Virus record (IMG/VR): IMGVR_UViG_2563366924_000005
Coordinates: 1 to 40,849 of that record
Direction: 5' to 3' (one strand)
Length of the DNA stretch: 40,849 nucleotides
Source: a virus
Taxonomy: Duplodnaviria > Heunggongvirae > Uroviricota > Caudoviricetes
Part shown: positions 1,009 through 40,849 of the stretch, piece after piece
Layout: the number at the start of each line of letters is the position of its first letter
Position numbering within the stretch: position 1 is the first letter of the stretch
The notes under the pieces: model-generated
What the model saw: the letters and a program-made list of their open reading frames with translations, nothing else
Database searches by the model: none
What the model was told of the DNA's origin: nothing
Translations under genes and position numbers: made by a program

Positions 1009-1083
1009 GTCCTCTTAGTTAAATGGATATAACGAGCCCCTCCTAAGGGCTAATTGCAGGTTCGATTCCTGCAGGGGACACTA
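1009..1083 (+). tRNA. argW: tRNA-Arg (anticodon CCU), argW; integration target, forms attL
   Basis: Cloverleaf readable by eye: acceptor GTCCTCT/AGGGGAC, anticodon stem AGCCC/GGGCT with loop CTCCTAA (anticodon CCT), T-arm GCAGG-TTCGATT-CCTGC, discriminator A at 1080; the three bases after it (1081-1083) read CTA, not an encoded CCA. Confidence 0.85.
1054..1069. repeat. 16-nt segment of argW T-arm (ttgcaggttcgattcc), left copy of a direct repeat; candidate att core
   Basis: Exact 16/16 match to 40614-40629 (18/19 including one mismatch to the left); lies in the tRNA 3' half next to the integrase gene. Confidence 0.6.
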
Positions 1084-1244
1084 TTTATCAGTTCGCTCCC
1101 ATCCGTACCAGTACGCAAAATCCCCTGAATATCAAGCCTTCCGTAGATTCACAGTTCGTCATGGTTCGCTTCAGATCGTTGACAGCCGCACTCCGTGACG
1201 GGTAAAAAGTGGATAAAATAATTTTACCCACCGGATTTTTACCC

Positions 1245-5454: not shown

Positions 5455-5516
5455 GTCAATATTTCCTAATCCGATTTGTTGATACCGAAGCCCTGACTGT
5501 TCCCGCAGTTGGGGCT

Positions 5517-5690
5517 TCAACTTTTTGCTAGATTACCTTTAGAACTATCCCGCCTTAAACTATCCACTAACCGCATTACCATCTCGGTATTTATTGAGCG
5601 ACCATTTTCTTTCGCTGACTTCTCGATTGCTAACTTAACCTCTAATGGGATGCGCAAAGGGTACTTTGGTGCGTCTGACTTGACTATCAT
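5517..5690 (-). CDS. arc: Arc-like ribbon-helix-helix repressor
   Basis: 57 aa from ATG at 5690 with GGAGG 5 nt upstream; ...[29 protein letters not shown] resembles P22 Arc (..REVLDLVRKVAEENGRSVNSEIYQRV..); directly upstream of ant. Confidence 0.75.
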
Positions 5691-24617: not shown

Positions 24618-24692
24618 TGGCGGGACAGCGTGGACTCGAACCACGATAAGAAGGTTAACAGCCTTCCGTAATGACCTTTATACGACTGACCC
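24618..24692 (-). tRNA. tRNA-Asn-like gene (anticodon GTT) between Q and the lysis genes
   Basis: Minus-strand read GGGTCAG-TC-GTAT-AAAGGTCA-TTAC-G-GAAGG-CTGTTAA-CCTTC-TTAT-CGTGG-TTCGAGT-CCACG-CTGTCCC-G-CCA: perfect anticodon and T arms, U33, GG in D-loop, encoded CCA; one T-T mismatch each in acceptor and D stems; 4-nt variable loop. Confidence 0.5.
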
Positions 24693-37869: not shown

Positions 37870-38448
37870 ATGAAACAAATGTCACTAATTGAGATGGATG
37901 GTTTTCTGAAAGGTAAATGCATCCCACGAGATTTAAAGGTTAACGAAACAAACGCTGAATATCTTGTCCGTAAGTTCGGCGAACTTGAATCAAAACTGGA
38001 AACGGCGTTGCGGGAGTGTCGTTCTGCTGGAATCACGATTGATAACCTTGAGGCCAAGTGCGCGGCGCTGGCAGCGGAGAATGCGATGTTGAAGCAACGG
38101 ACACAGCAACTTATCAACATCATTAGTAATACTGACAATGACTACTGCATGTGTGGTTCTGCTATGAAAGACCACGTGCACGGCGGATGTGGTTATCCTA
38201 CTGGCATGTTCGATTATTACTACAACCAGTGGCTGGAGTCAGATAACAAAACCCCAGCCACCGACGCTTTCCTGGCTGAAGTGCGGGCGCAGTGCCTCAA
38301 CGCTTTCATCCAGCATCACAGTGCAGAACTGGATGCGCATATTAAAAACGGTGGTGAGCAGTTCGACGAAAAATCAGTACGCATCAGAGACATCATCGTC
38401 TCAGCCCGCTTGTTCAGGGAGCAAATTCGCAAAGGAGCCGCGCTATGA
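37870..38448 (+). CDS. Hypothetical protein (about 192 aa) with cysteine/histidine cluster
   Basis: ORF 37852-38448, start preferred at ATG 37870 (MKQMSLIEM); [20 protein letters not shown] motif. Confidence 0.4.
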
Positions 38449-38717
38449 GCAAATCATACATCGTTATTCAGCAGTACTGGTGGTGCAACGAGAAAGGCCA
38501 TGGAGTTGAATACACGACAGACGGCGTTGACTTCGATAAGCGCGATAAGGCAATCAAGCATGGTCTGAAAACACAAGGTAGTGATGATTTCAACATCGGC
38601 GTTATCGAAGGCGGTAAGCTTGTTTCCTTCGACTGGATGAATGAGCCAGTGGGTGAAAGTGCAGAGACACTTGCTGAAATTGCAGAAGCCATCGGTTACG
38701 AAGGAACCGCCCAATGA
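38445..38717 (+). CDS. Hypothetical protein (90 aa)
   Basis: ORF, translationally coupled (ATGA overlaps at both ends). Confidence 0.4.
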   Translation: MSKSYIVIQQYWWCNEKGHGVEYTTDGVDFDKRDKAIKHGLKTQGSDDFNIGVIEGGKLVSFDWMNEPVGESAETLAEIAEAIGYEGTAQ

Positions 38718-39115
38718 GCAACATCGACAAACAGGCGTTAAATCAAGAAAAAATTGAATGGCTCAATAAATTAGCTGATATGGAGTATTGCAAAAGCAAT
38801 CCTGGGCATTGGCTGATGAGCTTGAAGGATACAAACATGCTTGCGAAATTGGCTCTGCGCTCAGTGGCGCTGCTGGCATCGCTGGAAGCCGCAGAGAAGC
38901 GAATCGCTGAACTGGAAGCGAATAAGTGTAAGCCAGTGATGTTTATTGATGGCGATATATCGCCTGCTGACGCTGACAAGTTGGCTGCTGTAATTCGCGA
39001 GTTCAACGAAGAAACAGAAACCCCTGCGGCTCGAATGGCGCGGATTATTCGCGAGAACCCGCATCCAACTAACATGTGCGATATGCCAGCCGCTGGCATC
39101 GGTAAGGGGGAGTGA
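38714..39115 (+). CDS. Hypothetical protein (133 aa)
   Basis: ORF, translationally coupled. Confidence 0.4.
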   Translation: MSNIDKQALNQEKIEWLNKLADMEYCKSNPGHWLMSLKDTNMLAKLALRSVALLASLEAAEKRIAELEANKCKPVMFIDGDISPADADKLAAVIREFNEETETPAARMARIIRENPHPTNMCDMPAAGIGKGE

Positions 39116-39546
39116 TGCTTCAACATCAAATGCAGCCAACATTTAACACCTGCATGGCTACCTGCGTTGCAATGGTTGCCGGTCAACCTGTCGATGAGGT
39201 AGTGGAACGCTGGCATCAGAAATTCCACGACAAAACAGACTGGCTCGACGACGCGCTGGATTATTACAAAATCCCGTATTTTTATGGAAGCCAGCGCAAG
39301 GCCGAATTGCTTTACGGGTTTATTTACTTCCTGACCGTTCCGTCACTGAACATCAAAGGCGTCCTGCATCAGATTCTGATGTCGTTAACGGCAGAACGCG
39401 GCATAGAAGTATTTGACCCGGCAATGGGTCGGCCAGGATCAAAATATTACGTTTGGGGTGAAGCGCAGAACGATGATCAATTCGGCGTTATCTCCTGGTG
39501 CGTCGATTTATCGGTTCCGGTAGTGCAACAGAAAGGTGAGGACTAA
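39112..39546 (+). CDS. Putative papain-fold cysteine peptidase, C39-like
   Basis: N-terminal QPTFNTCMATCVAMVAG resembles the C39 Q...C-G-A-C motif; a His (GVLHQIL) followed 16 residues later by Asp-Pro (EVFDP) matches the C39 His/Asp spacing. Confidence 0.45.
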   Translation: MMLQHQMQPTFNTCMATCVAMVAGQPVDEVVERWHQKFHDKTDWLDDALDYYKIPYFYGSQRKAELLYGFIYFLTVPSLNIKGVLHQILMSLTAERGIEVFDPAMGRPGSKYYVWGEAQNDDQFGVISWCVDLSVPVVQQKGED

Positions 39547-39549
39547 CCC

Positions 39550-40323
39550 ATGATCACTATTACCAAAGAACGTATTGAATTGTTCATTAAAAATCCGCTT
39601 GAAAACGGGCTTACCCGTGGTGAACAAATGGAACTGGCACGGATTGCGCTGGCATCGCTCGAAGCGGAGCCGGTGGCGTGGTTGCTGTCAGGAGGCGGGG
39701 CAAAAAACAACGTCAGCTTCGATAGTGGCAATGCTTATGCCGACCCGCTGCGAGAAGTAACGCCGCTTTACACCGCCCCGCCAGCGCCGGTATCTGTGCC
39801 CGCTGCGATGGAAATTGATGATGACTTTGACAGCGCGTTTGAACACGGAAAAGCTGTCGGCTGGAACGCCTATCGCGCCGCCATGCTTCAGGCCGAACCT
39901 GTAAGTAATAGTGATGAGTTACCGCTGGACTATCTGCAAGGACACAAAGACGGCCTGGAGTGGGCTGCACAATTGGCAGAAGCCAATCATCCGCAAACAG
40001 GTGACTGGTTATACGACGACCCAATCGATCTTGCCAGGGCGATTCGCAAAGGTCCGGATATGCCTACTGTTCAGGGTGGCAACTATCCGGTAACTCCGGA
40101 TGGTTGGATAAGCTGTAGTGAGCGAATGCCTGAAAAGGGCCAGAACGTGCTTATTTCGGTGAATTTCGATAGCTCTCTGGTTGAACCGCTAATATGCTCC
40201 GCACGCTATACCGGAAGCACCTTTCGGCGCGGAGATGCAACGATTAAGCCTGGTAATGATATTGAGCAGGCAACTCACTGGATGCCGCTACCGGAACCGC
40301 CGCAGGAGGTAAACCGTGGCTAA
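39550..40323 (+). CDS. DUF551-domain protein (Ea-type early protein)
   Basis: C-terminal ...QATHWMPLPEPPQE is the hallmark ending of DUF551; 257 aa. Confidence 0.55.
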   Translation: MITITKERIELFIKNPLENGLTRGEQMELARIALASLEAEPVAWLLSGGGAKNNVSFDSGNAYADPLREVTPLYTAPPAPVSVPAAMEIDDDFDSAFEHGKAVGWNAYRAAMLQAEPVSNSDELPLDYLQGHKDGLEWAAQLAEANHPQTGDWLYDDPIDLARAIRKGPDMPTVQGGNYPVTPDGWISCSERMPEKGQNVLISVNFDSSLVEPLICSARYTGSTFRRGDATIKPGNDIEQATHWMPLPEPPQEVNRG

Positions 40324-40423
40324 CCTGCAACTTGCCGTTAAAGGTGAATAACAATCCTCGCACTCGCGGGGATTTCTTTTATCTGAACTCGCTACGGCGA
40401 GTTTTGCTTTATGGAGATGATAA

Positions 40424-40591
40424 ATGCACTTTCGAGTCACAGGTGAATGGAATGGAGAGCCATTCAACAGGGTTATCGAAGCAGAGGACATCAACGACTG
40501 CTATAACCACTGGATGCTATGGGCGCAGATAGCACATGCAGACGTAACCAATATTCGAATTGAAGAACTGAAAGAACACCAAGCCGCCTGA
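40424..40591 (+). CDS. Small hypothetical protein (55 aa)
   Basis: GGAG ribosome-binding site then ATG 40424; stop codon embedded in the terminator hairpin; alternative ORF 40332-40532 in another frame starts with TTG and is less likely. Confidence 0.3.
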   Translation: MHFRVTGEWNGEPFNRVIEAEDINDCYNHWMLWAQIAHADVTNIRIEELKEHQAA

Positions 40592-40606
40592 TGGCGGTTT
40601 TTTATT
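40584..40606 (+). terminator. Rho-independent terminator upstream of torI
   Basis: Stem ccgcc/ggcgg, loop tgat, followed by tttttt, seen directly. Confidence 0.6.
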
Positions 40607-40613
40607 GCCTGAT

Positions 40614-40629
40614 TTGCAGGTTCGATTCC
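40614..40629. repeat. Second copy of the argW T-arm 16-mer (ttgcaggttcgattcc), 19 bp upstream of the torI start codon
   Basis: Exact match to 1054-1069; the flanking sequence is not tRNA-like (followed by ctattcggagatagcactc-ATG). Confidence 0.6.
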
Positions 40630-40648
40630 CTATTCGGAGATAGCACTC

Positions 40649-40849
40649 ATGCAACACGAACTACAGCCTGATTCACTGGTTGATTTGAAATTCATCATGG
40701 CTGATACTGGCTTTGGTAAAACCTTCATCTATGACCGGATTAAGTCCGGCGACCTGCCAAAAGCCAAAGTTATCCACGGGCGAGCAAGATGGTTATATCG
40801 TGACCATTGTGAATTCAAAAATAAGCTCTTAAGCCGCGCCAATGGGTAA
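40649..40849 (+). CDS. torI: TorI excisionase / recombination directionality factor
   Basis: 66 aa, MQHELQPDSLVDLKFIMADTGFGKTFIYDRIKSGDLPKAKVIHGRARWLYRDHCEFKNKLLSRANG, recognised as E. coli TorI; winged-helix excisionase; window ends at its stop codon. Confidence 0.9.
   Translation: MQHELQPDSLVDLKFIMADTGFGKTFIYDRIKSGDLPKAKVIHGRARWLYRDHCEFKNKLLSRANG

Follow-up and report, generated by a model that had tools for sequence, protein, structure and literature searches.

What holds an excisionase gene silent in a lysogen, and what releases it when the prophage is induced? In phages of the KplE1 type it is the expression of the recombination directionality factor (RDF) that decides on excision, a step described as still to be understood, and in KplE1/HK620/Sf6-type phages the integrase is constitutive (PMC2951348). 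The question is raised again by the last few hundred bases of IMG/VR virus record IMGVR_UViG_2563366924_000005, a Caudoviricetes sequence of 40,849 nucleotides that we analysed whole and refer to below as the window. In this prophage the RDF gene, torI, is preceded by a hairpin with a T-run and by a conserved element copied from the tRNA gene argW. The reading that we favour on balance, and with limited confidence, is that the hairpin is a genuine intrinsic terminator, that torI expression depends on the phage protein N, and that the conserved element is a site for a recombination protein; termination activity, read-through and binding are all predicted here from sequence. The features on which the argument turns are the following.

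40424..40591, + strand: last small early-left open reading frame (ORF), 55 aa, 51/54 residues identical to lambda orf55 (lambdap35, NP_597778), 94%
40581..40606, + strand: intrinsic-terminator-like element, stem 40581-40588/40593-40600, loop TGAT, T-run TTTTTTATT
40614..40629, + strand: 16-mer TTGCAGGTTCGATTCC, identical to the argW T-arm at 1054-1069
40617..40630, + strand: conserved element CAGGTTCGATTCCC, 13 bp of it from the argW (B) side of the attB overlap; it contains GTTCG and lies at about -29 from the ATG
40636..40639, + strand: torI Shine-Dalgarno sequence (SD) GGAG, a conserved alignment column
40649..40849, + strand: torI, RDF (excisionase), 66 aa, its stop codon being the end of the window

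The hairpin AAGCCGCC/TGAT/GGCGGTTT occupies 40581-40600 and is followed by TTTATTGCC. Its stem has 8 bp (5 G-C, 1 G-U and 2 A-U) closed by a 4-nt loop, the U-tract TTTTTTATT at 40598-40606 lies directly 3' of the stem, and the predicted dG is -13 kcal/mol (z = -2.4). The stop codon of the 55-aa ORF (TGA, 40589-40591) falls inside the loop; this ORF belongs to PHROG 676, a PHROG of unknown function. The torI start codon comes 48 nt past the hairpin and 19 nt past the 16-mer, with the SD between. The first-pass annotation had described this arrangement, a GC hairpin and T-run between the last early-left ORF and torI with the ORF ending in the hairpin, and then a short torI leader after the 16-mer, and on both points it was borne out. 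The strength that it ascribed to the terminator is a prediction.

The hairpin is shared with lambda. Window positions 40348-40617 are 94.5% identical to lambda 29091-29361, and in lambda the hairpin block, at about 29108-29128, comes immediately before the pI cII site and xis. The block GAACACCAAGCCGCCTGATGGCGGTTTTTT(A/C/T)TTGC(C/G)TG is common to lambda, HK140, HK620, Sf6, a close E. coli relative and the window, and the sequences diverge beyond it, lambda continuing with its pI cII site TTGCGTGTAATTGC and the xis ATG, HK140 with a different xis, and the window with the torI leader. The HK140 record annotates the hairpin as a rho-independent terminator. Literature searches on the lambda name tL3 gave nothing that ties it to this hairpin. 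In a second E. coli context, which has a truncated Xis-like ORF upstream and includes the T16R-type prophages, a homologous hairpin (CCGCA-TAAA/TCAA-TGCGG) stands upstream of torI, and at its loop-closing pair a C-G has been replaced by A-T in a compensatory manner (CCGCC/GGCGG versus CCGCA/TGCGG).

A survey of 187 torI-homologue loci from GTDB genomes and IMG/VR, in which a GC hairpin followed by a T-run counted as a terminator when it lay no more than 120 nt from the start codon, found such an element in 116 of them. These fall into about 30 sequence versions, with unrelated stems among them (GCCGCC, GCCCGGC, TGCCCTC, GACCTCGC, AGCCGC, GCCCGC and others), and more than 10 different stems are found at this position across genera. 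Measured from the ATG, the stem ends between -44 and -52, or between -18 and -23 in loci whose leader is shorter or has no conserved motif. As a background, about 3 such sites per 2.85 kb arise in shuffled versions of the window region, both strands counted. Relatives of the window therefore maintain the stem through compensatory or independent changes, and unrelated GC stems with T-runs that recur at a fixed distance from the xis gene, taken together with the compensatory change, form the pattern expected of a selected terminator. These results suggest that the hairpin and T-run at 40581-40606 are a genuine intrinsic terminator, with a termination activity that we infer from its form and conservation.

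Transcription that reaches this terminator would come from the early-left operon, which starts at about 33.4 kb, extends on the + strand as far as torI and carries lambda-type antitermination parts near its beginning.

33461..34094, + strand: nutL (boxA GCTCTTAAA; boxB GCCCTGAAGAAGGGC, 33479-33493) and a lambda-type N gene (33762-34094)

At nutL the sequence GCTCTTAAAAATTAAGCCCTGAAGAAGGGC is found at 33464-33493, with boxA and boxB identical to those of lambda, and the product of 33762-34094 matches Pfam PF11438 (N36) with E = 9.4e-23. Given a lambda-type N and a nutL, torI, like lambda xis, would be expected to be reached by N-mediated read-through, and N-dependent expression of torI is by this analogy a straightforward expectation. 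The hairpin would stop unmodified leftward transcription immediately before the excisionase gene, and TorI would come almost exclusively from pL transcripts antiterminated by N once the prophage is induced, following the lambda design. The first-pass annotation had offered two routes to excisionase expression, N-mediated read-through or a compact promoter overlapping the 16-mer. The first of these gained from the finding of N and nutL, by way of the lambda example, and the second, a promoter at the 16-mer, fits poorly with evidence that we take up below.

Two further terminator-like hairpins, neither of them listed in the first-pass annotation, stand in tandem between the DUF551 gene and the 55-aa ORF.

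40353-40374, + strand: terminator-like hairpin, -13.1 kcal/mol
40385-40404, + strand: terminator-like hairpin, -11.9 kcal/mol

Both are also present in the ea8.5-orf55 spacer of lambda, and with them three terminator-like elements lie within 260 bp before the RDF gene. The window thus has in common with the lambda pL operon the block of orf55, hairpin, T-run and TTGC, the pair of N and nutL, and an RDF gene next after the hairpin. It differs in what follows: in lambda the hairpin gives way to the pI cII site and xis and int are co-transcribed, whereas here attP is situated between torI and intS and consequently only the RDF is on the pL transcript. The layout of a terminator with predicted N read-through is the standard lambdoid design, homologous to that of lambda.

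The 16-mer between the terminator and torI had been called att-like and tRNA-like in the first-pass annotation, and its relation to argW can be stated precisely.

1009..1081, + strand: argW, tRNA-Arg(CCU), with attL extending to 1084

The 16-mer starts at the end of the variable loop of this tRNA gene and runs through the 5' T-stem and the T-loop into the 3' T-stem, of which it includes 2 nt, and its two exact occurrences in the window compare with a chance expectation of about 1e-5. The att core of KplE1 and HK620 has been published as CTGCAGGGGACACCAT, 16 nt (PMC2951348). This core, CTGCAGGGGACAC(C/T)AT, is the next 16 nt of argW beside the 16-mer, and it occurs once in the window, as CTGCAGGGGACACTAT at 1069-1084, with one mismatch to the published sequence. 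A second copy (attR) is found about 75 nt downstream of the torI stop codon in related genomes and in HK620, a position beyond the end of the window, and the published attR fragment begins at the torI 3' end (primer attR-IHF2; PMC3509656). The 16-mer is therefore a different, adjacent piece of argW. It has phage DNA on both sides, as follows from torI being phage-borne in HK620 and Sf6, and no arm-type GGGTAAAA site was found within 40560-40660. With the real core adjacent and attR 3' of torI, we rejected the 16-mer as an att core or secondary att site, and the term att-like has to be given up. The term tRNA-like holds for the DNA, an exact copy of the argW T-arm; it does not extend to an RNA, as the 3' T-stem is absent, there is no paired T-arm and no consensus structure, and ARAGORN and Rfam returned no tRNA, tmRNA or known RNA family at threshold in 40200-40849. 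Together the 16-mer and the true core make up the contiguous 3' end of argW, one half each; in the phage the leader, torI and the P arm, about 293 bp in all, lie between them, and the break falls exactly at the border of the two halves. This arrangement suggests that the element may descend from a longer tRNA-derived attP segment.

Comparison with other genera changes what should be regarded as the element. The TTGC at the start of the 16-mer is incidental, and the conserved unit, as the alignments have it, is the T-loop block CAGGTTCGATTCC. Many Enterobacterales have a shared block CAGGTTCGATT(C/T)CC in front of their torI homologues, at a distance of about 29 nt. The distant homologues compared, with 60-86% amino acid identity, came from prophages of Enterobacter, Citrobacter-like bacteria, Serratia, Pantoea, Edwardsiella and Hafnia and from many IMG/VR contigs. 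Among 47 distinct TorI-like proteins, 28 have an exact GTTCGATT(C/T/A)C ahead of them, in most cases with its first base at -29/-28 relative to the ATG. Pairwise identity across the 14-mer averages 0.85, compared with 0.86 at torI codon positions 1+2, 0.60 at third positions and 0.35 in the 12-nt 5' flank, figures that carry some ascertainment bias in that the sequences were aligned on the motif. Tandem copies of the motif occur with periods of 16 and 13 nt (L156/L176/L180 and L142), and all loci that have the motif carry argW-type cores. The 14-mer is present once per contig, and 64 of its 119 IMG/VR matches precede torI-like genes, the rest being mostly phage tRNA genes or unrelated.

Position as well as sequence ties the element to the recombination genes.

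40599..40617, + strand: mosaic joint of about 19 bp, made of T-run, TTGCCTGAT and TTGC; its TTGC-N5-TTGC is the cII annotation of HK620

Lambda-type homology ends at 40603-40617, and homology to torI modules begins at about 40540 (HK620, Sf6), at 40594 (T16R type) or at 40599 (K-12). The 16-mer is by these alignments at the left edge of a recombination module. In the explanation that we favour the terminator and T-run are also the conserved joint at which different early-left gene sets recombine onto different xis/int modules. The 13-14-bp element CAGGTTCGATTYCC, of which the 16-mer is the E. coli form, marks the left edge of the torI-attP-intS module and would be bound by the module's own proteins, the core-binding/catalytic clamp of IntS and/or TorI.

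The case for IntS is that CAGGTTCGATTCC is identical in 13/13 positions to the argW bases beside the inferred 7-bp overlap TGCAGGG, that is, to the B side of attB. A tyrosine-recombinase half-site is usually 13 bp. The case for TorI comes from attL, where five 8-mer TorI sites with cores GTTCG, GATCG or GTCCG have been described, and where TorI represses PintS through GTTCG-type sites (PMC2951348). By homology to K-12 the same sites are present in the window, just 5' of the PintS -35 sequence TTGACA, and a second, weak TorI-like 8-mer follows the element itself.

1089..1179, + strand: attL P' arm with five TorI sites
1089-1096, + strand: TorI site CAGTTCGC
1109-1116, + strand: TorI site CAGTACGC
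1152-1159, + strand: TorI site CAGTTCGT
1162-1169, + strand: TorI site TGGTTCGC
1172-1179, + strand: TorI site CAGATCGT
40630..40637, + strand: weak TorI-like 8-mer CTATTCGG, 12 bp past the first pentamer and abutting the SD

Compared with the TorI consensus YRGTTCGY, AGGTTCGA in the element has an exact GTTCG core and an A at position 8. Four other lineage groups have better TorI-like 8-mers at +12, again abutting the SD (TAGTTCGG, CAGTCCGG, CTGTTCGG and CGGTACGG). Binding would give IntS or TorI feedback on torI expression, perhaps in the form of an IntS bridge from the half-site to the arm-type sites just 3' of torI, or alternatively of a TorI roadblock over the torI leader. IntS binding is possible and we put it forward tentatively; TorI binding, which does not exclude it, is rather doubtful. 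Equally tentative is the full proposal that the element acts as a decoy attB half-site, bound by IntS (possibly looping the RDF gene) and/or TorI, and so directly sets the level of the excision switch.

Several observations weigh against the reading of terminator, N dependence and protein-bound element, in addition to the alignment bias already mentioned. The hairpin has been lost in K-12 KplE1 (dG -2.9 kcal/mol, z = 0.35), where the remnant (L007 1172-1214) still has the T-run, the motif and torI. About half of the TorI-like lineages have no detectable terminator within 120 nt, and about 40% have no motif, typically with the terminator moved up to the SD, so that neither element is essential. 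At the element itself, the base after GTTCG is invariably A, whereas every TorI site mapped or recognised by homology has C or T there; no overlap and no partner half-site for IntS stand beside it, the next bases being CTATTCG; and no promoter that a bound protein could repress is evident at the leader. Finally, torI control in K-12 KplE1 is reportedly Rho-dependent (Menouni et al. 2013, PNAS 110:14414).

Other explanations can be given for both the hairpin and the element. The hairpin might be only a mosaic joint or a bidirectional stop for transcription from outside, of little effect on torI, which would then simply be the last pL gene. It does coincide with homology breakpoints, it has a weaker terminator-like reading on the minus strand, and its absence from K-12 and from half of the lineages would be easily understood; however, the independent appearance of unrelated GC stems with T-runs at the same distance from xis, plus the compensatory change, makes this very unlikely. 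For the 16-mer region one idea is a cII-activated pI-type promoter, in which TTGC-CTGAT-TTGC would bind cII and a transcript would pass through torI and attP into intS when lysogeny is established. The HK620 record (AF335538) has here a promoter labelled 'phage integration' together with a cII site of 13 nt, TTGCCTGATTTGC, and Sf6 has pI by homology, an idea about 25 years old and, as far as records show, predicted only. The compact promoter of the first-pass annotation amounts to the same prediction. In its favour, lambda pI has as its first cII half-site the homologue of the first TTGC here, at the same position relative to the terminator; the prophage encodes a lambda cII with 2 residues different; and a start about 7 nt past a -10 at 40631-40636 would leave the SD outside the transcript, which would resemble lambda, where xis is not expressed from pI transcripts. 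However, the spacing at 40605-40617 is TTGC-N5-TTGC, where the phage's own pRE and lambda pI and pRE have N6; the first half-site is often TTAC and also TTTC in E. coli prophages, K-12 included; the second TTGC is absent in other genera; and there is no conserved -10, the 5-12 nt where it would lie being among the least conserved positions. A scan for sigma-70 promoters on the + strand of 38000-40849 found none. The intS promoter has been mapped in attL/attP (PMC2951348), and with a promoter of its own intS does not need pI. We regard a pI-type promoter as quite unlikely, and the comparison with lambda cII promoters as one of common descent of the first TTGC with different spacing, a polymorphic half-site and no conserved -10.

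Under a further explanation the 16-mer would be an inert relic, either of an ancestral attP with a longer piece of argW or of captured host DNA, hitch-hiking as a boundary sequence. The two argW halves about 293 bp apart with the break at their border, the annotation of the region in Sf6 as boundary sequence bsq2, the left homology edge of the module at 40594-40617 and the many lineages without the motif are all consistent with it. However, the motif is as conserved as nonsynonymous sites between two flanks that are near-random, and independent tandem duplications retain the whole element. Its consensus ends in CCC where the tRNA has CCT, and it is therefore not simply a decaying tRNA copy. 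RecA-mediated refreshment from argW needs more than 16 bp, for which the 16-mer is too short. Its degree of conservation, its CCC ending and its duplications speak for a function that now maintains the element, and an inert relic appears unlikely to us. Were the element inert, the locus would be ordinary lambdoid architecture, and the pI/cII annotation of HK620 would need to be treated cautiously. The motif could instead act as RNA in the torI leader, as a T-arm mimic or as an anti-SD or standby element that tunes TorI translation on read-through transcripts. Its distance to the SD and ATG is fixed (-29/-28), UUCGA of the E. coli leader could base-pair with a UCGGA at the SD, and the Edwardsiella and Pantoea leaders can form ACAGG-TTCGATTC-CCTGT. 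Against these pairings, RNAalifold finds 0 consensus pairs in 14 diverse leaders, the E. coli leader folds no better than shuffles (z = -1.25), and the 3' T-stem is missing, with no ARAGORN or Rfam call, so that an RNA role has a remote chance of being right.

Returning to the reading of a terminator, N-dependent torI and a protein-bound element, the comparison with characterized systems indicates where it would add something. In K-12 KplE1 upstream termination is reported to keep the RDF silent and the prophage integrated (Menouni et al. 2013), which is the same principle; there it is reportedly factor-dependent in a remnant without the intrinsic hairpin, whereas in the window the intrinsic terminator is intact. 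Full-length relatives appear to have an intact lambda-type terminator before torI that the K-12 model is without, and since K-12 is the experimental model, work in K-12 may miss one control layer. In the accessible texts we found no earlier description of the loss of an intrinsic terminator in the K-12 model, nor of a cross-genus T-arm-identical element before torI-type RDF genes. With the KplE1/HK620/Sf6 module studied by Panis, Ansaldi and co-workers the window shares a (near-)identical torI, the core, the arm-type GGGTAAAA sites and the five attL TorI sites; the difference is the conserved element 5' of torI, which the accessible accounts do not mention. Several RDFs also act as regulators (TorI at PintS, P2 Cox, 186 Apl, P4 Vis), and the torI leader has the GTTCG pentamer of TorI; it differs in that no promoter was identified there and in that the flanking bases are unlike those of mapped TorI sites, so that it is a candidate site. 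If the proposal is true, the operator of the RDF gene would stem from the target tRNA, a layer of control beyond what has been described for KplE1, HK620 or Sf6. The conserved T-arm-identical element is in any case a concrete and cheap target for binding and mutagenesis work.

Some other accounts of the motif were considered and set aside. It is not a regulon signal within the same phages, as there is one copy per contig and no further copy in the window. A small ORF through the motif (40591-40671, 26 aa) was rejected because other genera shift the frame and have no start codon; in K-12-type contexts the equivalent ORF is the tail of a truncated Xis-like ORF. A resemblance to the TorR box (CTGTTCATAT) reached 5/10 by eye.

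The truncated ORF belongs to the second common context of torI, in which an AlpA/Xis-like fragment (...SLTLDEACxFLKISRPT...) replaces orf55 (L007 1120-1200; L008 720-800; many IMG/VR loci, for example L043 and L056). With its remainder replaced at the terminator, it looks like the trace of an earlier, different excisionase gene. A C to A change turns GTTCGATT into GTTAGATT in four contexts (L008 at about 825, which is T16R, L068, L124 and L140), and the same alternation, TTCGAT/TTAGAT, is common to the motif and the attP C sites of different lineages, TT(C/A)GATGT-TGCAGGG, a parallel that counts in favour of the IntS half-site. At L217 (IMG/VR 3300011892_000028) an MREL-type TorI homologue is preceded by a terminator, TTGCCTGG and CAGGTTCGATTCCC, while MREL-type TorI elsewhere (L132-L134) is without the motif, and leader and gene have thus been exchanged independently. 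In Arsenophonus nasoniae (L023, about 1950-2000) the place of the T-arm motif before the torI homologue is taken by TTGCGTGAGATTTGCGTGTAATTG, a sequence like the cII site of lambda pI. Two metagenome-assembled genomes labelled Actinomycetes and Parachlamydiaceae (L014, L027) contain enterobacterial torI modules with argW-type cores, and these labels are probably the result of bin contamination.

The window begins with host DNA and is otherwise filled by the prophage.

from position 1: yfdC, at the window start

After argW a prophage of about 39.8 kb, a P22/lambda mosaic, fills the window, whose last base belongs to the torI stop codon. The intS gene adjoins argW and its product has Pfam integrase domains. 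The immunity region (31870-34094) is itself mosaic, with the lambda cII (31870-32163, minus strand, 2 substitutions), a pRE site TTGCGTTTGTTTGC of the form TTGC-N6-TTGC, nutR, nutL and the lambda-type N. An S24-type repressor is also encoded, a non-lambda S24/HTH protein (32568-33269) that stands beside these lambda-type parts; the late features of the phage are P22-like. Positions 5456-5522 hold a sar antisense RNA of the P22 type (Rfam RF00262, 71.6 bits), and the prophage carries a tRNA-Asn(GTT) gene at 24618-24692 on the minus strand. At attL, argW ends in GGGGACA-CTA and not in -CCA (1079-1084; core CTGCAGGGGACACTAT as compared with the published CACCAT end), and the tRNA-Arg(CCU) gene of the lysogen thus lacks an encoded CCA end, a variant that presumably came from the phage attP.

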